DNA from: an uncultured Gammaproteobacteria bacterium
GTDB taxonomy: Bacteria > Patescibacteriota > Patescibacteriia > SBBC01 > CAIJZX01
DNA: 64,000 bases
Direction: 5' to 3'
Assembly (NCBI GenBank): GCA_964397195.1
Contig: CAYNGY010000001.1
Coordinates: 269,415-333,414, forward strand
Positions 20,651 through 63,749 of the stretch are shown here, one piece after another. The position numbers and the translations under genes were made by a program. The notes beneath the pieces are model-generated. The model saw only the letters and a program-made list of their open reading frames with translations. It was not told the origin of the DNA and did no database searches. How positions within the stretch are numbered: the stretch's first letter is position 1; each line of letters starts with the position of its first letter.

Positions 20651-21121
20651 ATGGCAGAAGGCCAAATACACACACCAGAACGACCGTCATTTGCCCCACC
20701 GGAAGTTGGGCCGGTTGATATTGAATCCAAGGTCGAGCATCCGACTCCGTCCGTAGATACGACGATGGTGCATGAAGTCGTACCCATCACCCCAATCATC
20801 CCAGTCAATGCTCAGCCGATGATGGATGCGGATGGCACGACGTCGGCGCTAACGAAGCGGGTCGAAGACATCATGGTGGCCGGTCTCGCCGAGACGTATG
20901 CCCAACTTGATCCGGCCACGCAAGCCAAGTTCAAGGCTGAAGGTGAACGCACGGCCGGACTGATTTCTGATATGTTGGCCACGGCTAAGATCCACGTCAA
21001 AAAAATCGTCGATCTGCTCGTCGCCTGGTTACGCATTGTGCCGGGCGTCAATAAATACTTTCTTGAACAAGAGGCAAAAATCAAGGCCGACAAACTGTTG
21101 GCGTTAAAAAAGAAGTCATGA
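20651..21121 (+). CDS. hypothetical protein
   Basis: 156 aa; extended -10 (TGTGATATAAT) just upstream; ATGA-coupled to the next gene. Confidence 0.6.
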   Translation: MAEGQIHTPERPSFAPPEVGPVDIESKVEHPTPSVDTTMVHEVVPITPIIPVNAQPMMDADGTTSALTKRVEDIMVAGLAETYAQLDPATQAKFKAEGERTAGLISDMLATAKIHVKKIVDLLVAWLRIVPGVNKYFLEQEAKIKADKLLALKKKS

Positions 21122-23637
21122 ACCCTGATAGCGCCGAGTTTATCGATTTGAATGCGCGTCCGCTGATGATCAGTCCATGGTGGTGGGTCGCGCTCGCGAC
21201 AGTCGTCGCCTTCGTGATCGCTGTGATCGTAATTCGGTACCTGACTCACAAACTGAATCGAATTCCGCGGGCGATGGAATATGTCGTACTGCTCGTTTTA
21301 CTCCCGCGCGAAACGCTGAAACTCGAACAACAGAATAAAGATTGGCGGGATGTCTTAGCCGGGTTTGAAACGCTCTACCTGACCTTGGCCGGTGTTCGAC
21401 TCGAACATGGCGGGTCTTTCGCCAAAGCCTGGCGCCATTTTTGGTTCGGCCGCCACGATCATCTTTCACTCGAGATCGTTTCGACCAAAGGACAAATTCA
21501 ATTCTACCTCGCTGTGCCACGCGCCGTGCGCCAACTGGTTGAACTTCAGATTCAGGCGCAGTACCCGCAAGCGGACATCGAAGAAGCCGAAGACTACAAT
21601 TTGTTCGCCGCGAACTCAACTATCCGCGGAACGATGCTTCGTCTGACGAAGCCCTTCTTTTTTCCGATCCGGACGTATCGGAAGCTCGATAGCGATCCGC
21701 TCAATGCCATTACGAATGTCCTGAGCAAAGTCCAGCCGCAAGAAGGCGCGGCCATCCAGATTCTCATTCGCCCGAAATCTTCGAACTGGAATAGTCGTGG
21801 TCGGCATATTGCCCGCGCCATGCAAGAAGGGAAAACGCTCGGCGAAGCCATGGGCAAGTCCGGCGGTAATGTGTTACTGGCCTCATTAAAAACCGAAAGC
21901 GATCGGTATAAGCAACCGAAGACGCCGTACGTCACGCCGATGGACCAAGAGCTGATACGGACGATGGAGGAAAAAGCGGGGAAGCCCGGTTTTGATGCCA
22001 ACATCCGCATCGTCACAGCTTCACCACTCGCTCCGAATGCTGACGTCCACCTCGAAAATATCGTCAACGCTTTCAGTCAATTTATCGCCCCAGAGTCGGG
22101 CAATCAATTTCGTCGCACCAGCATCGTCAGCTCGAGTCAACTGATTAGCGATTTTATCTTTCGGCATTTCGAGAATGGACGCCGCCTCGTCTTGACGAGC
22201 GAGGAGCTGAATAGTATCTATCACTTCCCGCTCCCGCAGACTGAGACGCCGAATATTCAATGGCTCGCGGCCAAACAAGCCGCGGCGCCGGTCAATTTGC
22301 CGAGTGACGGAATCACGCTTGGTCATAATGTCTTCCGCGGTCACGACGCCGTGATCAAATTAAAACCGAACGATCGCCGTCGCCATGTCTACGTGATTGG
22401 GACGACCGGATCAGGAAAAACGGTACTGATGCAAGAAATGGCCAAACAGGATATTCGCAATGGCGAAGGCGTTTGTATTGTTGATCCGCACGGGAGTTTT
22501 GTCGACGACGTCTTGCCCTGCATTCCGCCGTCGCGCATGCATGACGTCATTCTGTTTGATCCGTCGGATGTCGATCGGCCGATGGGGCTCAATATGCTCG
22601 AGGCTCGCTCACCGGAAGAGCGTGACTTTGCCGTCCAGGAGATGATTGCCATCTTCATGAAACTGTTCCCGCCGGAAATGATCGGGCCGATGTTTGAACA
22701 CAACATGCGGAACGCGATGTTGACGCTGATGGAAGACGACGAACATCCGGGAACGATTGCGGATATCCCGCGCATGTTCACCGATAAAACATTCCAGCAA
22801 TACAAAATTTCGAAAGTGAAAGACCCGGTCGTTCGGGCGTTCTGGGAGAAAGAGATGGCGAAGACGAGCGATTTCCATAAATCCGAAATGCTCGGCTACC
22901 TAATTTCAAAGGTTGGGCGATTTATTGAGAACTCGATGATGCGTAACATCATCGGACAACCAAAATCAGGGTTCAATTTTCGGGCGGTCATGGACGAACG
23001 CAAAATCTTGTTGGTGAATCTCTCGAAAGGAAAAATTGGCGAAGTCAACGCGGCGCTGCTCGGGCTAATCATCGTTTCGAAATTGCAGATGGCTGCCCTT
23101 GGTCGGGCGAACGTCACCGAACTAAATCGGCCGGATTTCTTCCTCTATATTGATGAGTTCCAAAACTTTATTACCGATTCAATTGCGACAATTCTATCGG
23201 AGGCCCGAAAATATAAATTGAATCTGACCATGGCCCATCAATATATGGGGCAACTCGTCCAGGGCACAGACACGCGAGTGCGGGATGCGGTGCTCGGCAA
23301 CGTGGGGACAATGGTCGCCTTCCGAATTGGTGTCGAAGATGCGGAAGTGCTTGATAAACAATTTGCTCCGACTTTTACGGCTTTCGATTTGGTCAACCAG
23401 CAGCGCTTTACCGCGTACGTTCGTCTCCTAATCGATAATACGGCCGCGCCGCCGTTTCATATGCAGACCTACCCATCCACGATTGGCCAGACGACGGTGG
23501 GTGAGGCGATCAAACAATACTCGCGCCTGCGCTACGGGAAAGGCCGCGCCGTGGTCGAGGCCGAAATTCTTGAGCGGACAAAGTTGGGCACCGTCACCGC
23601 GGGCGCGACGCCACTCCCACCAGAACCGTCTCGCTGA
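21118..23637 (+). CDS. VirD4/TraG/TraD-like type IV coupling protein family ATPase (membrane-anchored)
   Basis: 839 aa, N-terminal TM, Walker A GTTGSGKT, Walker B FLYIDEFQNF, overall T4CP-like architecture. Confidence 0.8.
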   Translation: MNPDSAEFIDLNARPLMISPWWWVALATVVAFVIAVIVIRYLTHKLNRIPRAMEYVVLLVLLPRETLKLEQQNKDWRDVLAGFETLYLTLAGVRLEHGGSFAKAWRHFWFGRHDHLSLEIVSTKGQIQFYLAVPRAVRQLVELQIQAQYPQADIEEAEDYNLFAANSTIRGTMLRLTKPFFFPIRTYRKLDSDPLNAITNVLSKVQPQEGAAIQILIRPKSSNWNSRGRHIARAMQEGKTLGEAMGKSGGNVLLASLKTESDRYKQPKTPYVTPMDQELIRTMEEKAGKPGFDANIRIVTASPLAPNADVHLENIVNAFSQFIAPESGNQFRRTSIVSSSQLISDFIFRHFENGRRLVLTSEELNSIYHFPLPQTETPNIQWLAAKQAAAPVNLPSDGITLGHNVFRGHDAVIKLKPNDRRRHVYVIGTTGSGKTVLMQEMAKQDIRNGEGVCIVDPHGSFVDDVLPCIPPSRMHDVILFDPSDVDRPMGLNMLEARSPEERDFAVQEMIAIFMKLFPPEMIGPMFEHNMRNAMLTLMEDDEHPGTIADIPRMFTDKTFQQYKISKVKDPVVRAFWEKEMAKTSDFHKSEMLGYLISKVGRFIENSMMRNIIGQPKSGFNFRAVMDERKILLVNLSKGKIGEVNAALLGLIIVSKLQMAALGRANVTELNRPDFFLYIDEFQNFITDSIATILSEARKYKLNLTMAHQYMGQLVQGTDTRVRDAVLGNVGTMVAFRIGVEDAEVLDKQFAPTFTAFDLVNQQRFTAYVRLLIDNTAAPPFHMQTYPSTIGQTTVGEAIKQYSRLRYGKGRAVVEAEILERTKLGTVTAGATPLPPEPSR

Positions 23638-27290: not shown

Positions 27291-27364
27291 TCCGGGATCG
27301 TCTAATGGTAGGACTCCAGGTTCTGGACCTGGCTATCTTGGTTCGAATCCAGGTCCCGGAGCCA
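27291..27364 (+). tRNA. tRNA-Gln (anticodon CTG), CCA encoded
   Basis: Cloverleaf folded by hand: 7-bp acceptor TCCGGGA/TCCCGGA, D-arm GTCT/GGAC, anticodon loop TTCTGGA, T-arm CTTGG-TTCGAAT-CCAGG, 3' GCCA. Confidence 0.85.
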
Positions 27365-35406: not shown

Positions 35407-36972
35407 ATGACCCAAGACACCGCCCTGGCGATCCTCACGACCGGCCGCAACGTCTTCCTGACCGGTGAACCCGGCTCGGGTAAGACGTATTTGGTGAACG
35501 CCTACGTCGAGTATCTTCGCGCCCACCACATCACCGTAGCCATCACCGCCTCAACCGGCATCGCCGCCACGCACATTTCCGGGGTAACCATTCACTCGTG
35601 GAGCGGCGTCGGAATCCGTGACCGCCTATCAAAAACCGATCTCGAGATCATTACGACGACCGACCGTCTCGCCAAGCAAATCTCCGGAACGGATGTCTTG
35701 ATCATCGACGAAATATCTATGCTCGATGCGTCCGTCCTGGAGATGGTTGATGAGGTTTGCAAATCCATTCGCCGCTCGGCTGAACCCTTCGGTGGCTTGC
35801 AGGTAGTTCTGGTCGGAGATTTTTTTCAGTTACCGCCGGTCTCACGTCCGGGTGACGAACCGGCGCGTTTTGCCTTTACCAGTCCGGTTTGGACCGAAGC
35901 GATGTTTGATGTCTGCTATCTGACCGAACAACACCGTCAATCCGACGCCGCCCTGACGAGCGTTCTGGCGGCGATTCGTGGTGGCCAACACTCCGATGAA
36001 GCAATGGCTCATCTCGACTCCCGTCGCGTCACGTATGACGCCGACGATCATGGCGCCACGAAACTCTATAGCCACAACGCTAATGTCGATGAGGTCAACG
36101 CCGAGAAACTCGAAAAACTTCCCGGCGATGTTCATGTCTTCGAGATGTCCCATCACGGCCCGCGTCATAAAATTGAAGCCTTAACCCGCGGCTGTCTGTC
36201 GCCGGAACGCTTGGAACTCAAAAAGGGCGCAGCGGTGATCTGCACCCGAAACAATCCGGAAAAAGGATTCGTCAATGGCACGTTGGCGACCGTGGTGGAT
36301 TTTGCCAAGACGGACGGCTATCCGATTGTCGAGACGCGTGATCGTCGACGCATCACGGTCGAACCAATGGATTGGGCAATTGATGAAGGGGAGAAGGGCG
36401 GCGCCCGGATTACCCAAGTCCCGCTCCGCCTCGCTTGGGCGATCACGGTGCACAAGAGCCAAGGAATGTCGCTCGATGCGGCGGTCATGGATTTGTCCCG
36501 TTCATTCGCGTTTGGGCAGGGTTACGTCGCGCTCTCGCGCGTCCGTTCACTCGATGGACTCTTCTTACTCGGGTGGAACAACCGTGCCTTGCTCGTTGAT
36601 CCGATTATTCAAGATCAAGACCGCGTCATGCGTGAACAGTCAGCCCAAGCTGAGCAGTCATGGGCGGCGCGGACCGCCGACGCCCGACGCGAACAACAAG
36701 AAGACTTCATCCGGCGCGCCGGCGGGGTCATCCATCCGAAAGTCTCGACCCACGTGCCGGGGGAAGTTATTGATGTCCCGCCACACGCCAAGCGACTTGA
36801 GGAGATTCGGAAGACCTATCCGCGCGCCTACACGCCGTGGAGTGATGACGACGATCAAGCCATTGCCGAACTCCATGCGAAAGACCTGCCGATGCGCGAG
36901 CTGGCCAAGCGCCTCGAGCGCCATCCGGGCGGGATTCGTTCGCGTCTCAAAAAACTCGGGTTGGTGCAGTAG
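35407..36972 (+). CDS. PIF1/RecD-like ATP-dependent DNA helicase
   Basis: 521 aa, Walker A GEPGSGKT, Walker B LIIDEISML, SF1B motifs, unusual basic C-terminal extension. Confidence 0.85.
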   Translation: MTQDTALAILTTGRNVFLTGEPGSGKTYLVNAYVEYLRAHHITVAITASTGIAATHISGVTIHSWSGVGIRDRLSKTDLEIITTTDRLAKQISGTDVLIIDEISMLDASVLEMVDEVCKSIRRSAEPFGGLQVVLVGDFFQLPPVSRPGDEPARFAFTSPVWTEAMFDVCYLTEQHRQSDAALTSVLAAIRGGQHSDEAMAHLDSRRVTYDADDHGATKLYSHNANVDEVNAEKLEKLPGDVHVFEMSHHGPRHKIEALTRGCLSPERLELKKGAAVICTRNNPEKGFVNGTLATVVDFAKTDGYPIVETRDRRRITVEPMDWAIDEGEKGGARITQVPLRLAWAITVHKSQGMSLDAAVMDLSRSFAFGQGYVALSRVRSLDGLFLLGWNNRALLVDPIIQDQDRVMREQSAQAEQSWAARTADARREQQEDFIRRAGGVIHPKVSTHVPGEVIDVPPHAKRLEEIRKTYPRAYTPWSDDDDQAIAELHAKDLPMRELAKRLERHPGGIRSRLKKLGLVQ

Positions 36973-60247: not shown

Positions 60248-60673
60248 ATGATTGATTTCTCAATTTCGTGGATGCCGTTCCTGACGGTGGCGGTCGCTAA
60301 TTTCTTCCTGAGCTGGGTATATTATTCCCCGGTCTCCCCATTCTTCCGAATGTGGCAACGCGGACTCGGAATGGATCCGAATAATCGGACGATGACCGAC
60401 GACCAAAAGAAAGCTATGCCGCGCTTGATGATGGGCGCAGTAGTCGGGACGCTCCTGCTGTCGTACGGGATGCAGGTGCTCGTTCGCAGTCTCGACCTGA
60501 CGACGTTTTCTGAGGGGATGCTGATTGGCTTCGTCGCCTGGTTCACCTTTGCGGTGACCCACAGCTTGAACACCCAGTTTGAGGGCCGCAAGCCGGTCAT
60601 CCTGGTCATCAATGATCTTTGGTTCTTGATCACCTATCTCGGATTCGGCGGTCTGCTCGCCGTTTGGCGCTAG
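60248..60673 (+). CDS. DUF1761-like small membrane protein
   Basis: 141 aa, 4 TM helices, resembles the DUF1761 family. Confidence 0.55.
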   Translation: MIDFSISWMPFLTVAVANFFLSWVYYSPVSPFFRMWQRGLGMDPNNRTMTDDQKKAMPRLMMGAVVGTLLLSYGMQVLVRSLDLTTFSEGMLIGFVAWFTFAVTHSLNTQFEGRKPVILVINDLWFLITYLGFGGLLAVWR

Positions 60674-60692
60674 GTACACATACCGCCAAACA

Positions 60693-60718
60693 AAAAAACC
60701 GCCGCGGGGCGGTTTTTT
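60693..60718. terminator. bidirectional rho-independent terminator (copy 1 of an identical 26-mer)
   Basis: AAAAAACCGCCGCGGGGCGGTTTTTT; identical copy at 63201. Confidence 0.8.
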
Positions 60719-60725
60719 CTTCAGG

Positions 60726-61265
60726 TTATTTGTAAATTTTATCAAGCGTTGCTTCGTGTGGTTTGCCGATCGATTGGATCGTGTACCGTGGAAAAAGTGT
60801 CCGGAGTTTGCTGCGACGGAAAAGCTGATCAACCGTACCTTCACGTTCTTCATATGATAAACGTGACAGTGATCGGTAGAGAATAAGGTGGAGGAGTTCA
60901 TGCGCAATCGTTTCTACCACCCGTGGTACCGGATCGGTTTTTATAATGCGGAGAAACAAGCGGTTCGGGCGACGAAACTGGCCCTCTGGTCCAAATATTG
61001 AAACGTGGCTGATGTATACTGGTCGGACGTCTGCAGTCGAAAATCGTCGTACAATGGAAAAATAGGCACGCTCTTTTTTGCGCCATGCACGCTCTACCGT
61101 ACGAATGTCAATCGGGGACGGCGTGCCTAGAGTGAATAATGCAGACTTTGGGAGAGGAAGATTCACGGGCATGCGTTGACGACGAAACCACGTCCGGAGT
61201 TCTTCGAGGTCGCGCTGATGCGCGCGCTCGCGACGGATATCGTGGGAAAATGTGACGGTAGGCAT
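60726..61265 (-). CDS. hypothetical HExxH-motif protein (putative metallopeptidase)
   Basis: 179 aa, IAHELLHL motif; lies immediately downstream of the rSAM gene. Confidence 0.55.
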   Translation of the reverse strand: MPTVTFSHDIRRERAHQRDLEELRTWFRRQRMPVNLPLPKSALFTLGTPSPIDIRTVERAWRKKERAYFSIVRRFSTADVRPVYISHVSIFGPEGQFRRPNRLFLRIIKTDPVPRVVETIAHELLHLILYRSLSRLSYEEREGTVDQLFRRSKLRTLFPRYTIQSIGKPHEATLDKIYK

Positions 61266-61290
61266 AAGGACAGTATACCGCCAGTTGCGT

Positions 61291-61331
61291 ACAAAGAAAA
61301 CAAAGGATCCGGGTCGGCCTCCACCGACCCG
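61291..61331 (-). terminator. rho-independent terminator (minus strand)
   Basis: Perfect 9-bp stem CCGGGTCGG/CCGACCCGG with a T-rich tract on the minus strand. Confidence 0.7.
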
Positions 61332-61347
61332 GATTTAAGGTGTTGCG

Positions 61348-62718
61348 TTACTTGAGCAACCCGCAGGCATGCATCGTGACGATGAGTTCTCGGGCTTCCT
61401 GCTCCGCCGTGACGTTTCGGGCGAACGCGTCACGGATCTGGGCGACGACGTCGCCGATCGTTCGGGTGCCGTCGAGTAGCTGGAGCGTCTTGGCGCCGAG
61501 GGACGAGAAGGCGAGAATGCCGAAGCCCTTGAAGTAGCCAATCGGGCCGTTGATGTCGGACCGGATTCGGTACTGGCGGGTCACCGACAGCCGCGTATCG
61601 TCTGAGATGATCGCCCTCACGCCCATTTCCTTGGGCGTGCGGAGGTGTTGCCACCATTCGCGGGCTCGATACTGCATCATCCCACCGAGTCGACGCGACA
61701 TCGTCCAGACGTTTTCTTCTTCGGGCGTCGGGATGAACTCGTCCGGTGCGTAGAGATGTGCGCCCGGTCGTGAGGCAGAACATCCAGCCCCACAGAAGTG
61801 TGGGCACACGCGGCACTGCCATGGCAGGTGTTCCAGAGTGCGCATGGCCGCCAGTCGTTCCGTCCAGATCGTGGTCAGCGGAGTCGTCAGGATGTTGCCG
61901 AGCGTTCCGTTGAGGATGGAACAGGACTTGACGTCGCCGGTGAAGGAGATGTGGCCGAACCCGGTACCTTGCCAGCAGCCGGTGACCAGATCCCAATCCG
62001 CGACTGGGATCGTGCAGAGAGGGAAGGCGTCACCCATGACGGCGTTGATTCCGGTCTCGGCTTTGACTCGCCGCATCTCCGTGAAGAGCCAGCGGTAGTC
62101 CTTGAGGGACAACCGATCTTCGTGCCAGGTGGCGACCGCCTCGCCGGATGGACAGAGCCTCCCGACGCCGATTTCGTCAACCGGCACGTTGTCCCGACGG
62201 AGATCCCTCGCCATGGCACTGAGCGTCCGGTAGTTGGCTTGGGTTGGGGTGAACAGTAGGTTTATGGCGATGCCCGCGTCATGGCAATACCGGAGCCCAC
62301 GAATCGTACGTTGGTACGCTCCCGGGACGCCGACCATTGCATCGTGCACCGGCTCGGGTCCATGTAGCGACATTGCGCCGCTGGTGATTCCAGAGGCAGC
62401 GAGCGTCTTCGCCATCTCCCCCGTAATCCTGGTCCCGTTTGAGACGAAACCCATGAAGAAGTCGAGCTGTGCGGCGTACGCGACGAGCTCGCGCCAGCCG
62501 TTGAGTGTCGTGAATTCTCCGCCGAACCACCGAATCTCGAAGACCTCGGCATCAGCGAGAGCATCGATCACTCTGCGCACGCGCTCGACAGGCGGATTCA
62601 CATGGCGATGCGTCGCCGAGTTACTGAAACACGGGCCACACTTCAAATTACAGACGAGTGTCGCCTCGAGGTTCACCGAAATCGGCGATTTGAGCGCGGT
62701 GAGGACGTGGGGGTCCAC
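61348..62718 (-). CDS. radical SAM/SPASM-domain peptide-modifying enzyme with C-terminal PqqD-like (RRE) domain
   Basis: CNLKCGPC (CxxxCxxC), SPASM cysteine clusters (CWQGTGFGH...C, CRVCPHFCGAGC), C-terminal about 90 aa with a PqqD-like pattern (LLDGTRTIGDVVAQI...); GTG start at 62718 preceded by AAGGAGA. Confidence 0.8.
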   Translation of the reverse strand: MDPHVLTALKSPISVNLEATLVCNLKCGPCFSNSATHRHVNPPVERVRRVIDALADAEVFEIRWFGGEFTTLNGWRELVAYAAQLDFFMGFVSNGTRITGEMAKTLAASGITSGAMSLHGPEPVHDAMVGVPGAYQRTIRGLRYCHDAGIAINLLFTPTQANYRTLSAMARDLRRDNVPVDEIGVGRLCPSGEAVATWHEDRLSLKDYRWLFTEMRRVKAETGINAVMGDAFPLCTIPVADWDLVTGCWQGTGFGHISFTGDVKSCSILNGTLGNILTTPLTTIWTERLAAMRTLEHLPWQCRVCPHFCGAGCSASRPGAHLYAPDEFIPTPEEENVWTMSRRLGGMMQYRAREWWQHLRTPKEMGVRAIISDDTRLSVTRQYRIRSDINGPIGYFKGFGILAFSSLGAKTLQLLDGTRTIGDVVAQIRDAFARNVTAEQEARELIVTMHACGLLK

Positions 62719-62779
62719 GGCACTCTCCTTGTCGTTAGGTTGGGCGCGCTGGCGATGAAGCCAGCGCGCCCAACGGTGA

Positions 62780-62956
62780 TCACTTGCAGCAGCGGCAGGT
62801 GCACTCGCCGGCGCAGCGCATCGTGGCTTCACGGCGTGCATGCTGAGCGAGCGACCCGCGATTGCTCTGGACGACCGAGAACATGCCGACGGACGGGTTC
62901 GGGCTACCCCGACTCATCCCGACGAGCGTCATCAGGCCACGAAGAACGCGAGTCAT
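62780..62956 (-). CDS. 58-aa Cys-rich peptide, candidate RiPP precursor
   Basis: MTRVLRGLMTLVGMSRGSPNPSVGMFSVVQSNRGSLAQHARREATMRCAGECTCRCCK; SD GAGAGGAGGAAGGC 7 nt upstream; 59 nt upstream of the rSAM gene on the same strand. Confidence 0.55.
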   Translation of the reverse strand: MTRVLRGLMTLVGMSRGSPNPSVGMFSVVQSNRGSLAQHARREATMRCAGECTCRCCK

Positions 62957-63001
62957 GCCTTCCTCCTCTCTTGTCCCGAAACCGAAGGTAGAAAACGAGC
63001 A

Positions 63002-63089
63002 ATGTCGTATTCACGACATTGAGTTAGGCAAAATGCCCTCGCTTCGTCTTCGACGTCGAGAACTTGTAAAGGTTCTAGGCTGAGCCTAG
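63002..63089 (-). promoter_or_regulatory. upstream region of the peptide gene with two perfect palindromes
   Basis: ATGTCGT-attc-ACGACAT (63002-63019) and CTAGGCT-g-AGCCTAG (63075-63089); TTGACA on the minus strand at 63105-63110. Confidence 0.4.
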
Positions 63090-63200
63090 CAGAAAATTGA
63101 GATTTGTCAACCGCTAGATCTGCCGTCTGAATTACAGAGCGCCTTACCAAGGCCTTGCTTTTCAACTTGAACGGAAACACCGTGCGAAAACAGTTGTCAC

Positions 63201-63226
63201 AAAAAACCGCCGCGGGGCGGTTTTTT
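63201..63226. terminator. bidirectional rho-independent terminator (copy 2 of the identical 26-mer)
   Basis: Identical to 60693..60718. Confidence 0.8.
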
Positions 63227-63238
63227 GGTCTGATGGCG

Positions 63239-63634
63239 TTAGCCGCGCATTTCCTGCATCAGGCTAGCGCGGTTGCCTTCGGTGTCGGTAAACGAGACGT
63301 ACATGCCGACCCCCGGAATGGCGACCGGTTCGCCGAGGATTTTTCCGCCGGCGTCGGTGATGCGGTGCATCGCCGCTTGGATATCATCGACCGCAATCAC
63401 CACTGAAGGAATCGGGGACGAAGCGGCTTCTTTCAAGAAAAACCCGCCGTTGATATTGCCCGGTGTTTTGACCATTCGGTTTTCGTCGGTCTCAGTCGTA
63501 CCGGCGGTGATGTACCCGCCCATCTCCGGGCCGGTGGCATTCATCGTCCACCCGAAGGCCTGTTGATAGAAGGCGGAGACGCGATCGGCGTTCTCGTAGG
63601 GCATTTCGAAATGGACGACGGGGTTTGGGTTCAT
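63239..63634 (-). CDS. VOC-family (glyoxalase/bleomycin-resistance/dioxygenase) protein
   Basis: 131 aa, betaalphabetabetabeta-module pattern typical of the VOC superfamily. Confidence 0.7.
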   Translation of the reverse strand: MNPNPVVHFEMPYENADRVSAFYQQAFGWTMNATGPEMGGYITAGTTETDENRMVKTPGNINGGFFLKEAASSPIPSVVIAVDDIQAAMHRITDAGGKILGEPVAIPGVGMYVSFTDTEGNRASLMQEMRG

Positions 63635-63749
63635 AGGGGTGATAAAGAGTGAATATTTCTGGCTCTAGTGTAGCAAGGGTGGGTTCGGTCGTGAAGTCGG
63701 TCGGCCGTTGCTTCATTCGAGTCGGACCGCATGATATACTGGGGTCACT

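Follow-up and report, generated by a model that had tools for sequence, protein, structure and literature searches.

The ORF studied here has 58 codons, lies directly upstream of a radical SAM (rSAM) gene and ends in a run of closely spaced cysteines, and the question it raises is whether it is a true gene for a RiPP precursor and, if so, to which of the known systems it belongs. The window, i.e. the whole 64,000-nucleotide stretch of DNA that was analysed, is a chromosomal segment carrying SecY, DnaX and CysS. The genomes of candidate-phyla-radiation (CPR) bacteria, or Patescibacteria, are tiny, and to our knowledge few biosynthetic gene clusters have been recognised in them, and a conserved three-gene RiPP cassette missed by standard annotation widens what these bacteria can make.

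A short ORF missing from the annotation

The ORF occupies positions 62780..62956 of the minus strand and encodes 58 aa followed by a stop codon (MTRVLRGLMTLVGMSRGSPNPSVGMFSVVQSNRGSLAQHARREATMRCAGECTCRCCK). The sequence-only reading had described it as an unannotated ORF immediately upstream of the rSAM gene with the C-terminal pattern CxxxCxCxCC, and it was right on both points. The translated peptide terminates in CAGECTCRCCK, so that the final 11 residues hold five Cys, a density unmatched among the 939 stop-to-stop segments that a six-frame reading of the window yields at a minimum length of 40 aa. The NCBI record lacks the peptide and instead gives a 497-aa enzyme starting from ATG 62841 and overlapping the ORF. 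A Logan gene call is the sole record holding the window peptide, and in four further loci (L023-L026) the peptide is likewise uncalled in the underlying JGI, NCBI and ENA records. The NCBI start of the enzyme is extended too far and runs across the peptide; the locus also exemplifies a pitfall that short precursor genes generally pose to annotation. The Shine-Dalgarno (SD) sequence AGGAGG reported earlier is present (62962-62967, minus strand), the distance to the peptide ATG being 5 nt instead of the 7 nt given. The rSAM gene follows downstream on the same strand after a gap of 61 nt, counted from GTG 62718, which contains a stem-loop.

The peptide matches no Pfam or NCBIfam model up to an E-value of 10, and a word-indexed protein search retrieved, besides the peptide, a single homologue (81%). 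Since this kind of search is too insensitive, the family was recovered via rSAM-anchored loci and by an exhaustive HMM search of 1.84 billion protein representatives, the latter giving eight clusters with an identical core type. A literature search, incomplete in its coverage, found no published description of the peptide family or the cassette.

Conservation of the peptide gene

Of the loci, 20 retain DNA upstream of the orthologous rSAM gene, and every one of them has a homologous small ORF close before that gene; these 20 represent 11 distinct sequences from hosts with a GC content of 31 to 56%. The earlier reading had named stop codons or frameshifts beside an intact rSAM gene as evidence against the ORF; none was found in the 11 distinct versions, so the ORF is not refuted on this account. 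The codon-level comparison it had also suggested reveals strong purifying selection on the peptide core, with a pN/pS of 0.106 (about 0.11) at a pS of 0.71, where synonymous sites are saturated. The core itself, RCAGECTCRCCK (residues 47-58; 62783..62818, minus strand), is conserved in all eight clusters with the family consensus (K/R)CAG(E/Q)CTC(R/K)CCK, and its Cys and Thr codons vary synonymously among the homologues. In one lineage (L001) the peptide terminates in CRCG, which indicates that the final Cys-Lys is dispensable.

The N-terminal portion of the peptide is far less constrained (pN/pS 0.87), with the exception of a leader block VGxFSV(V/L)xGxxGS with a pN/pS of 0.36. It includes the motif FSVV (residues 26-29; 62870..62881, minus strand), of which FSV is invariant across all family members, so that the shared leader motif can be written as FSV(V/L)xG; judging from this pattern, we infer that it may serve as the recognition sequence for the RRE of the neighbouring enzyme. 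All distinct homologues but one (10 of 11) have a SD sequence of the GGAGG, GAGG or GGAG type 5-9 nt ahead of the start; in the exception, L012, it precedes an upstream GTG.

The opposite view, that the ORF is no gene and owes its conservation to an N-terminal extension of the rSAM protein from ATG 62841, to a regulatory RNA or to chance, would agree with the NCBI annotation of an overlapping 497-aa enzyme without any peptide, and with the conserved RNA hairpins within the region. It is nonetheless exceedingly improbable. The 41-aa extension is read in another frame, would have to cross both a hairpin of 15 bp and the SD that belongs to the enzyme, and is closed by stop codons in most of the orthologues, whose ORFs are of 460 aa; the alignment of orthologues starts at GTG 62718, on which ground the 497-aa annotation was rejected. 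Purifying selection without stops is confined to the peptide frame, the Cys and Thr codons change synonymously there, and ribosome-binding sites accompany the homologues as listed above. On this evidence the reading as a non-gene was rejected. An antisense ORF of 129 aa (62602..62991, plus strand) was discarded as well, as the sense frame is the only one to pair a low pN/pS with zero stops.

The 58-codon ORF is thus a real, conserved and unannotated gene for a Cys-rich precursor peptide, and conservation across the homologous loci supports the layout originally proposed, namely a leader followed by a Cys-rich C-terminal core.

The radical SAM/SPASM enzyme and its RRE

The second gene of the cassette encodes a 456-aa radical SAM/SPASM peptide maturase (61348..62718, minus strand) with the SD sequence AAGGAG at 62725-62730. 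Its true start is most likely GTG 62718, judging by the orthologues, which begin at this position, and by the Logan call of the 456-aa form. The Radical_SAM and SPASM families of Pfam are both matched above the gathering thresholds, with 66.5 bits and 24.3 bits (cut-off 21.5), respectively. The CxxxCxxC motif (C23, C27 and C30) and nine further Cys are invariant in the rSAM family, as are the motifs Cx12Gx4C and Cx2Cx3Cx3C.

The C-terminal part of the enzyme (approximately residues 384-456; 61351..61569, minus strand) is a PqqD-like RRE. When the C-terminal 90 aa were searched, all 11 family members matched Pfam PqqD with the best E-value of 6.6e-11, and the domain from the window scores 25.3 bits against the cut-off of 23.4. 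In the PDB the profile of the domain matches PqqD (3g2b), with weaker matches to two lasso RREs, TbiB1 and TfuB1. The locus therefore shows what is generally seen in rSAM/SPASM RiPP systems: a conserved short ORF adjacent to and co-oriented with the enzyme gene, a CxxxCxxC motif combined with a SPASM domain, and a PqqD-like RRE. From these features the ORF is very probably a genuine RiPP precursor modified by the adjacent radical SAM/SPASM-RRE enzyme.

The best NCBIfam matches of the enzyme are AhbD, NirJ2, AhbC and MftC, with no curated cut-off reached; the AhbD, NirJ, MftC and GeoRSP-type SPASM models score 76-100 bits. The curated thioether maturase models lie much lower, SkfB giving 49 bits (cut-off 300) and AlbA 36 bits (cut-off 850), and neither the SCIFF maturase model TIGR03974 (cut-off 425 bits) nor the PapB models appear among the top 25 matches, none of which falls below 34 bits. 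Since the enzyme groups with the AhbD, NirJ, MftC and GeoRSP-type proteins and not with the curated thioether maturases, thioether formation is not implied by homology. MftC, PqqE and the known SbtM-type enzymes perform chemistry other than thioether formation. Because the enzyme stands outside the curated thioether maturase families, its characterisation could uncover thioether synthases of a new branch or, alternatively, a new radical chemistry acting on Cys-rich peptides.

Among solved structures the best relatives by profile are SkfB (E-value 2e-20) and CteB (8e-10, aligned over nearly the full length), ahead of SuiB and anSME. The sactipeptide maturases SkfB and AlbA are thioether-forming enzymes acting on Cys, and the substrate Cys can be bound by an auxiliary cluster of their SPASM or twitch domains. 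The SkfB alignment, however, is limited to the radical SAM core (residues 10-178), the NCBIfam scores are low, as given above, and both the precursor and the position of the RRE differ. According to the PDB alignments, the rSAM core begins at about residue 10 in the window enzyme but at residues 103-125 in CteB (103), SuiB and SkfB.

Comparison with SCIFF and ranthipeptide systems

In the sequence-only reading the arrangement was compared to SCIFF and ranthipeptide precursors. The layout does hold: as in the CteA-CteB, Tte1186a and freyrasin PapA-PapB systems, a short precursor with a Cys-rich C-terminus is encoded beside an RRE-bearing rSAM/SPASM maturase, and CteB is the second-best solved relative of that maturase. 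Membership in the SCIFF family does not, as there is no model match and the RRE is C-terminal. A bona fide SCIFF or ranthipeptide of the type with six Cys in 45 residues, with a maturase forming non-alpha Cys-to-Thr/Asp/Glu thioethers like CteB and PapB, would account for the nearly full-length alignment with CteB and for one detail of the core, where Cys48 and Thr53 are separated by four residues, the same spacing as in the Cys32-Thr37 link reported for the SCIFF peptides Tte1186a and CteA (PMC8326336).

Neither the window peptide nor any of four relatives has an NCBIfam match at an E-value of 10 or lower, so TIGR03973, which we take to be the SCIFF precursor model, is not matched. The enzyme is topped by AhbD, NirJ and MftC, while an unrelated rSAM neighbouring the cassette in L023 does reach 104-108 bits on the TIGR03974 and PapB models. 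The RRE is located at the C-terminus of the enzyme instead of the N-terminus, the core has five Cys, or four, instead of six, with the five packed into 10 residues at the extreme C-terminus, and the hosts are CPR bacteria rather than Clostridia. The cassette also has an obligatory partner gene coding for a HExxH protein, and we know of no SCIFF system that includes one. SCIFF systems, like the cassette, often come without a transporter. Taken together, the assignment to the SCIFF/ranthipeptide family appears very improbable; in terms of sequence, the peptide is to be regarded as a RiPP precursor but not as a SCIFF family member.

The HExxH protein

Third in the conserved cassette is a gene (60726..61265, minus strand) encoding a HExxH zincin-fold protein of 179 aa, i.e. 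about 180 aa, with the motif HELLH at 60888-60902. It adjoins the rSAM gene in every locus, and its HExxH motif, placed on the active-site helix as is typical of the zincin fold, is invariant. Across 13 loci E140 and D146 hardly vary, and 90% or more of 35 members share E142, which lies 16 residues past HExxH as in gluzincins and is a candidate for the third metal ligand, a Glu in that group. The family is rare and patchy, with approximately 36 homologues in 5.8 billion proteins. Pfam gave weak matches to the putative Zn peptidases DUF5700, DUF2268, SprT and M78, the top Foldseek matches were all M1 gluzincin peptidases, none of them significant, and a search of PDB sequences with the family profile produced no match even at an E-value of 10. 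Based on these resemblances, the protein is somewhat more probably a peptidase than anything else.

Another group of HExxH proteins has to be considered here, namely the Fe(II)/alpha-ketoglutarate-dependent oxygenases such as ChlH, BpmH, PflC/PosC and PesO (TIGR04267), which are recognised as a RiPP tailoring family and are often encoded with, or even fused to, rSAM enzymes (PMC12636437, PMC13060819). The cassette protein shares with them the HExxH motif, a zincin-like fold and the association with a rSAM RiPP system, and one of the 35 homologues matches TIGR04267 with an E-value of 1.4e-3. If it belonged there, it would hydroxylate or oxidatively cleave the rSAM-modified peptide, which affects only one step of the mechanism proposed below. 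The window protein itself has no match to TIGR04267 (IPR026337) at an E-value of 1 or lower, the other 34 homologues do not match TIGR04267 either, and with 180 aa the protein is half the size of the solved HExxH domain (about 340 aa). The near-invariant E142 and the structural and Pfam matches, weak as they are, point to gluzincins and Zn peptidases. Such oxygenases also need O2. CPR hosts are mostly anaerobes. The oxygenase assignment is hence a possible but less likely one. For the HExxH partner the choice would lie between a leader peptidase of minimal size and a miniature version of this emerging oxygenase family, the former being preferred.

Organisation of the cassette and transcription signals

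The conserved cassette consists of the peptide gene with a stem-loop, the gene for the rSAM/SPASM enzyme with its C-terminal PqqD-type domain, a terminator and the gene for the HExxH protein. The stem-loop, with a perfect 15-bp stem and a 6-nt loop, follows the stop codon of the peptide gene and precedes the ribosome-binding site of the rSAM gene (62739..62774, minus strand). A stem-loop of 12-17 bp with a differing sequence is found at the same position in all 11 distinct loci (z-scores from -2.7 to -6.0), often followed by a U-run. Past the rSAM stop codon there is an intrinsic-terminator-like 12-bp hairpin followed by CCTTTGTTTT (61307..61334, minus strand), and most of 12 loci show a comparable hairpin with a T-run in the spacer separating the rSAM and HExxH genes. 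The HExxH gene has no SD; a -10-like box TATACT (61272..61277, minus strand) is located 6 nt upstream of its ATG, and a TAnAAT-like box is found 6-8 nt before the ATG, likewise without a SD, in 11 of 12 loci, which suggests that the gene may be expressed from a separate, leaderless transcript. A bidirectional intrinsic terminator, AAAAAACCGCC-ccgc-GGCGGTTTTTTT (60692..60718, on either strand), closes the cassette.

Upstream of the peptide gene, a putative sigma-70-type promoter for a joint peptide-rSAM transcript can be read from the sequence at 63083..63110 (minus strand), with the -35 box TTGACA (63105-63110), a 16-nt spacer and the -10 box TAGGCT (63083-63088). The proposal is based on manual reading and cross-locus comparison: the closest relative (L017) keeps TTGACA and a TAGnnT box, and TTGACA-N17-TAnnnT arrangements occur upstream of the peptide in most other loci. 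A sigma-70 consensus scan of 60500-63700 called no promoter, because the -10 box is weak. Between this putative promoter and the peptide lies a block ACCTTTACAAGTTCTCGA (63056..63073, minus strand) with 17 of 18 bases the same in L017 amid an otherwise diverged intergenic region. It contains CCTT[GT]A[ACT]AA, which is found approximately 10-20 nt past the -10 box in 6 of the 11 distinct loci, against a background of about one per 9 kb.

The two perfect palindromes noted earlier in the upstream region both exist, the first having 9-nt arms, longer than stated at that time: CAATGTCGT-gaat-ACGACATTG, a 5'-UTR stem-loop 43 nt upstream of the ATG (63000..63021, minus strand), and CTAGGCT-g-AGCCTAG (63075..63089, on either strand), which overlaps the putative -10 box. 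When the 243-nt intergenic region was simulated with a first-order Markov model, 0.3% of the trials gave two separate perfect inverted repeats whose arms had 7 nt or more, and 0.7% gave an arm of 9 nt. The role of regulator operators suggested for the palindromes gains no support from the comparison with L017. In place of the first, that locus has a hairpin of 10 bp with another sequence, GTGACGCGAC-ctcc-GTCGCGTCGC, at 42 nt from its ATG, and a different sequence at the same distance is the signature of an RNA structure and not of a conserved protein-binding site. The counterpart of the second is not palindromic, so conservation lends no support to an operator there. By these sequence criteria the palindromes are non-random, yet they do not behave as conserved operators. 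An Rfam search of the window and the intergenic regions found no known RNA family over the hairpins, giving sub-threshold chance matches only.

Proposed mechanism and possible function

The following scheme is put together from the features described above. A promoter approximately 125 nt upstream would drive one transcript with the peptide gene and the radical SAM gene, and the strong stem-loop past the peptide stop codon may attenuate read-through or stabilise the upstream segment, yielding more precursor message than enzyme message. The C-terminal PqqD-type domain of the rSAM/SPASM enzyme would bind the leader, probably at FSV(V/L)xG, and the enzyme would use a 5'-deoxyadenosyl radical to modify the invariant core. 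The likeliest product would carry at least one intramolecular Cys thioether cross-link, with the invariant Thr53 and Glu/Gln51 as candidate acceptors; thioether cross-linking is our best guess for the chemistry, a tentative one, with the other outcomes together somewhat ahead of it. Hints in its favour are the thioether synthases SkfB and CteB as the top solved relatives, the spacing of Cys48 and Thr53, and one locus in which a second rSAM, with the PapB and SCIFF maturase models among its best matches, is followed by an ORF of 41 aa containing CPGHCSC, a motif related to the core. The HExxH zincin-fold protein, separately transcribed, might then remove the leader or tailor the peptide further.

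As to function, no transporter, immunity gene, second enzyme or other peptidase shared between the cassette loci was found, and in this respect the cassette fits a secreted bioactive peptide poorly. The invariance of the core across hosts of 31-56% GC, combined with the lack of a conserved exporter, speaks more for a molecular function that is conserved than for an antibiotic shaped by an arms race. In mycofactocin (MftA/B/C/E) and PQQ (PqqA/D/E/F) biosynthesis, the same logic of a precursor, a PqqD-type domain, a SPASM radical SAM enzyme and a metallopeptidase without an exporter gives a peptide-derived cofactor, with the modified residues at the extreme C-terminus of the precursor, as is predicted here. 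By analogy, the cassette might yield an intracellular cofactor or metal-binding molecule, metal binding being conceivable for a core with five thiols. MftC is among the best full-length NCBIfam matches (enzyme residues 8-326 against 7-328 of 339), and near-invariance of the core across very divergent hosts is what one expects of cofactor precursors rather than of antimicrobial RiPPs.

Several features set the cassette apart from both systems, though. Its PqqD domain is fused to the C-terminus of the enzyme instead of being separate, the MftC score is 90.2 bits against a cut-off of 265, and the Cys-rich substrate ends in CCK and lacks the C-terminal Val-Tyr or Glu...Tyr motifs. The peptidase candidate is a small HExxH zincin, whereas MftE resembles creatininase and PqqF belongs to the M16 peptidases. 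No dehydrogenase or other downstream redox or client enzyme and no further tailoring genes co-occur with it, and the rarity of the family is unlike that of a core cofactor. An intracellular cofactor or metal-binding molecule made after the manner of mycofactocin or PQQ is on balance quite improbable.

The three-gene cassette for a peptide natural product constitutes a small, undescribed and uncurated RiPP family, found almost only in CPR bacteria. One could go further and speculate, although we think it rather unlikely as a whole, that it represents a new RiPP class largely confined to CPR bacteria, in which a rSAM/SPASM enzyme of the MftC/NirJ clade with a C-terminal RRE would install an undescribed modification in the invariant core C-x-G-x-C-T-C-x-C, and the product, which a minimal HExxH zincin would release and no dedicated transporter export, would play an intracellular redox or metal-binding, cofactor-like role in organisms with very small genomes. 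The cassette is a compact system, open to synthesis and testing.

The peptide gene

The cassette shared by the window and its related loci comprises a conserved coding precursor, an adjacent radical SAM/SPASM enzyme with a RiPP recognition element (RRE) and an obligatory HExxH partner. The peptide ORF lies at 62780..62956 on the minus strand, exactly where the sequence-only reading had placed it, and its 58-aa product, MTRVLRGLMTLVGMSRGSPNPSVGMFSVVQSNRGSLAQHARREATMRCAGECTCRCCK, ends in C-x3-C-x-C-x-C-C, in agreement with the Cys-rich terminus described there. Of the 939 stop-to-stop segments (40 aa or longer) in the six frames of the whole window, the peptide ORF alone has five Cys within 11 residues. 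The SD AGGAGG is also present (62962-62967), at a distance of 5 nt from the ATG rather than the 7 nt reported. As had been stated, the ORF is unannotated in the source record, the exact peptide being found in a Logan gene call alone. In the NCBI record, the enzyme is given as a 497-aa version starting from ATG 62841, which overlaps the peptide ORF in a different frame, and the peptide gene is absent also from the JGI, NCBI and ENA gene calls of the related loci.

The related loci were gathered with the downstream radical SAM protein (61348..62718, minus strand) as an anchor. This resulted in five loci from species-representative genomes, with MAGs labelled as Saccharibacteria (two), Buchananbacteria, Liptonbacteria and 'Gammaproteobacteria', and 11 further loci from metagenomes; the closest relative, L017, was retrieved via the peptide itself, which is 81% identical. 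A small ORF with the core C-x-G-x-C-x-C-x-C ends just before the enzyme gene in all 20 loci retaining upstream DNA (11 distinct nucleotide sequences), and an SD is located 5-9 nt ahead of its start in 10 of the 11 distinct homologues, with the exception of locus L012, where the SD precedes an upstream GTG. Frameshifts or stop codons in the ORF beside an intact radical SAM gene, which according to the sequence-only reading would speak against the gene, were looked for and found in none of the 11 distinct homologues, so the proposal stands on this point.

Nei-Gojobori counts over all pairs of homologues gave a pN/pS of 0.106 for the 12-residue core (with a saturated pS of 0.71), 0.36 for the VGxFSVVxGxxGS block, 0.52 for the linker and 0.87 for the N-terminal 22 codons, and the core Cys, Thr, Gly and Arg codons vary synonymously between loci. 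In the six-frame control of the ungapped block, a low pN/pS (0.34) coincided with zero stops in the annotated frame only; the mirror antisense frame has a pN/pS of 0.39 but contains stops. Codon-level comparison of the loci shows the peptide gene to be conserved and coding, its product being a putative RiPP precursor.

The peptide family

An exhaustive HMMER search of all 1.84 billion 50%-identity representatives returned eight peptide clusters at E<=1e-3, as well as two spurious long proteins. All the family peptides possess the C-terminal motif (K/R)CAG(E/Q)CTC(R/K)CCK and, about 20 residues upstream of the core, FSV(V/L)xG. The hydrophobic N-terminal segment is wholly missing in the subgroup of homologous peptides P0043 and P0044, so the minimal precursor consists of roughly 10 residues, FSV(V/L)xG, a 14-residue linker and the core. 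In locus L001 the peptide terminates in CRCG, making the final Cys-Lys dispensable, and the homologue P0045 carries a 23-residue extension beyond CCK. The family occurs almost solely in CPR/Patescibacteria MAGs, and the lone 'Gammaproteobacteria' and 'Thorarchaeota' labels, both on MAG contigs, may be binning errors.

The radical SAM/SPASM enzyme

When all the window ORFs from 52 kb onward were compared by BLASTP with all ORFs of the related loci, only two genes besides that of the peptide were common to them: the radical SAM enzyme, with an identity of 52-58% (82% in L017), and the 179-aa protein downstream of it. The neighbourhoods compared had no transporter, immunity protein or additional peptidase in common.

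The enzyme has a length of 456 aa from the GTG 62718 start, which has its own SD, and most orthologous ORFs are 460 aa long and start at the equivalent position. The 41-aa N-terminal extension in NCBI (62719-62841, minus strand, start ATG 62841) overlaps the peptide ORF, crosses the intercistronic hairpin and is not conserved among orthologues. The 456-aa form, not the 497-aa one, agrees with the orthologues and with the Logan gene call.

The Pfam matches Radical_SAM (66.5 bits) and SPASM (24.3 bits) both exceed their gathering thresholds. The CxxxCxxC motif (C23, C27, C30) is invariant across the enzyme family, as are nine more Cys, including the SPASM-type C248-x12-G-x4-C266 and C302-x2-C-x3-C-x3-C313. 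A Pfam PqqD domain is recognized in the last 90 residues of 11 of 11 family members, with a best E of 6.6e-11, and that of the window enzyme scores 25.3 bits (cut-off 23.4). Used as a profile, these residues match PqqD (3g2b) and give weak matches to the lasso-peptide RREs TbiB1 and TfuB1. On the strength of these domains and invariant Cys, the enzyme is predicted to be a peptide maturase carrying an RRE fused to its C-terminus. In contrast, the radical SAM core of CteB, SuiB and SkfB starts only at residue 103-125, behind an N-terminal domain.

Among solved structures, SkfB ranks first against the enzyme family profile (2e-20, core only), CteB second (8e-10, residues 17-315 against 103-420), followed by SuiB and anSME. 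No cut-off of an NCBIfam equivalog model was approached by the enzyme, which scored 100 bits with AhbD, 96 with NirJ2, 91 with AhbC, 90 with MftC (cut-off 265), 76 with GeoRSP rSAM, 49 with SkfB and 36 with AlbA. The SCIFF/ranthipeptide-like layout seen in the sequence-only reading does not extend to family membership: the family peptides gave zero Pfam or NCBIfam matches even at E<=10, and neither the SCIFF maturase model nor that of PapB is among the best 25 NCBIfam matches of the enzyme.

The finding belongs to a known kind, the radical SAM/SPASM-modified RiPPs, within which SCIFF, PapB-type ranthipeptide, sactipeptide, mycofactocin and other curated families were tested and none fits. In full-text searches, with their incomplete coverage of the literature, the core sequence did not appear in any paper, nor was such a system described for CPR/Patescibacteria. 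Three features were not found described jointly, namely the invariant CAG(E/Q)CTC(R/K)CCK core, the RRE fused to the C-terminus of an MftC/NirJ-like SPASM enzyme and the minimal HExxH zincin partner.

The HExxH protein

The 179-aa protein (60726..61265, minus strand) is present in all 16 loci directly downstream of the enzyme gene, with 32-42% identity. Its family includes about 36 proteins among 5.8 billion, all 'hypothetical' and none with a Pfam domain. Invariant residues are W61, H87, E94, G95, P100, R106, E118 and H122-E123-x-x-H126, and at least 90% of members share E142, D146, Y138, Y161 and Q164. The AlphaFold2 model (35 sequences) is confident (pLDDT 89, pTM 0.87); Foldseek gave no significant match for it, M1 peptidases being ranked best, and the family profile had no match in the PDB by sequence.

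HExxH proteins of RiPP clusters can be Fe/alpha-KG oxygenases and not peptidases (PMC12636437, PMC13060819), so both activities are to be considered, and one member weakly matches the alpha-KG-HExxH hydroxylase model TIGR04267 (E 1.4e-3). Sub-threshold Pfam matches lean towards putative Zn peptidases (DUF5700 in 13 of 35 members, SprT-like in 9, DUF2268 in 6 and M78 in 5). Due to this leaning, the small size of the protein, a gluzincin-like Glu 16 residues past the HExxH motif and the lack of any other protease in the cassette, a leader peptidase is the favoured prediction. A solitary homologue of the HExxH protein, P0026, was found at L021 2301-2861 (GCA_947085755.1, CAMTXK010000014.1), with neither a radical SAM gene nor a core-motif ORF in the 9.9 kb covered of this locus.

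Proposed maturation

The functional statements made here draw on sequence, comparison and predicted structure. The leader would be bound by the RRE of the enzyme at the FSV(V/L)xG strand, a hydrogen atom would be abstracted from a core residue, and the radical would be captured by the thiolate of a Cys, which may be bound to an auxiliary cluster, giving a thioether. The invariant Thr53 and Glu/Gln51 are candidates for the acceptor. Between Cys48 and Thr53 the spacing (x4) is the same as in the Cys32-Thr37 link reported for SCIFF peptides (PMC8326336); as to Glu/Gln51, either residue has a gamma-CH2 adjoining a carbonyl, and E-x-x-C is similar in spacing to NxxC. Thioether formation is put forward tentatively, somewhat short of probable. 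By homology the enzyme is closer to MftC, NirJ and AhbD than to the curated thioether synthases, and it may instead carry out different Cys-directed or C-terminal chemistry, such as SbtM-type thiooxazole formation, MftC-type oxidative decarboxylation or anSME-type formylglycine formation. The lack of an exporter and the invariance of the core would suit an intracellular cofactor-like or metal-binding product, which is nevertheless considered unlikely.

Organization of the operon

The anatomy of the operon was read from the sequence and by comparison of loci, and the functions of its elements are inferred. The unit starts after a bidirectional terminator (63200-63227) which ends the upstream glyoxalase-family gene. 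A candidate promoter on the minus strand consists of TTGACA (63105-63110), a 16-nt spacer and TAGGCT (63083-63088); both boxes are kept in L017 (TTGACA ... TAGAGT), and TTGACA-N17-TAnnnT precedes the peptide in most of the other loci. Just downstream of the promoter, the block ACCTTTACAAGTTCTCGA (63056-63073, minus strand) is almost identical in L017 though the surrounding spacer has diverged. Its 9-nt kernel CCTT[GT]A[ACT]AA occurs some 10-20 nt past the putative -10 box in six of the 11 distinct loci (window, L001, L006, L007, L011 and L017), against a background of about one per 9 kb, and may represent either a site for a regulator or a conserved transcript 5' end.

Both upstream palindromes noticed in the sequence-only reading are real (63000-63021, with 9-nt arms, and 63075-63089); two such inverted repeats appeared in 0.3% of first-order Markov simulations of the 243-nt intergenic region. 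Their suggested role as regulator operators was not borne out. The first is part of the 5' UTR, at a distance of 43 nt from the ATG, and L017 forms a 10-bp hairpin of different sequence 42 nt before its ATG, which speaks for an RNA structure rather than a conserved operator sequence. The second overlaps the -10 box, and the corresponding sequence of L017 is no palindrome.

Each of the 11 distinct loci carries a stem-loop of 12-17 bp behind the peptide stop codon (MFE z -2.7 to -6.0). The stem-loop sequences are unrelated, and in the AT-rich loci a U-run comes next. Intercistronic stem-loops of RiPP operons generally act as attenuators or stabilisers raising the ratio of precursor to enzyme message. 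The enzyme gene is followed by a terminator-like hairpin with a T-run (61307-61334) which has a counterpart in most loci. The HExxH gene lacks an SD and has a TAnAAT-like box 6-8 nt ahead of the ATG in 11 of 12 loci: in the window TATACT (61272-61277, minus strand), after the terminator hairpin, and in the other spacers between the two genes (L001-L017) TAAAAT, TAGAAT, TATAAT or TACAAT, often preceded by TGT. This arrangement suggests a separate, conserved leaderless transcript. A bidirectional terminator (60692-60718) ends the cassette.

Genomic surroundings

The window, with a GC content of 56%, is part of a chromosome and includes secY, dnaX and cysS. The glyoxalase/bleomycin-resistance-family gene directly upstream of the cassette (63239-63634, minus strand) is probably unrelated to it, since it is not conserved in other loci. 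Just upstream of that gene, past the 3' end of the window, L027 4246-7456 encodes a 590-aa radical SAM protein with weak similarity to B12-binding radical SAM proteins and a 442-aa protein without a family, neither of which was seen in other loci.

In a Liptonbacteria MAG, 1.5 kb from the cassette, there is a 41-aa ORF, MSKSVIRKVSYLGKKQDLKVHLTRIQCPGHCSCASKSKKRR (L005 2540-2665, the same as L023 4070-4195), 17 nt past a second radical SAM/SPASM gene (430 aa), whose best NCBIfam scores are all below cut-off (nif11-like 117 bits, PapB 108, SCIFF maturase 104). The CPGHCSC of this ORF has C-x-G-x-C-[ST]-C in common with the family core. Further radical SAM/SPASM peptide-maturase-like genes are located beside the cassette at L009 4595-5914, L004 6674-7888 and L023 12539-13695, and L023 also contains an ATP-grasp gene (MvdD-like, weak) with a 45-aa ORF. 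With such neighbours in several CPR loci, the cassette is often located in small RiPP islands. A DUF6624 protein is encoded near the cassette in two unrelated loci at differing positions (L023 11982-12485 and L025 4525-4992). Elsewhere in the window, a TraD-like coupling-protein fragment match (21118-23637), a RecD2/TraA-relaxase-like helicase (35407-36972) and a tRNA gene (27291-27361), all on the plus strand, may represent an integrated conjugative element.
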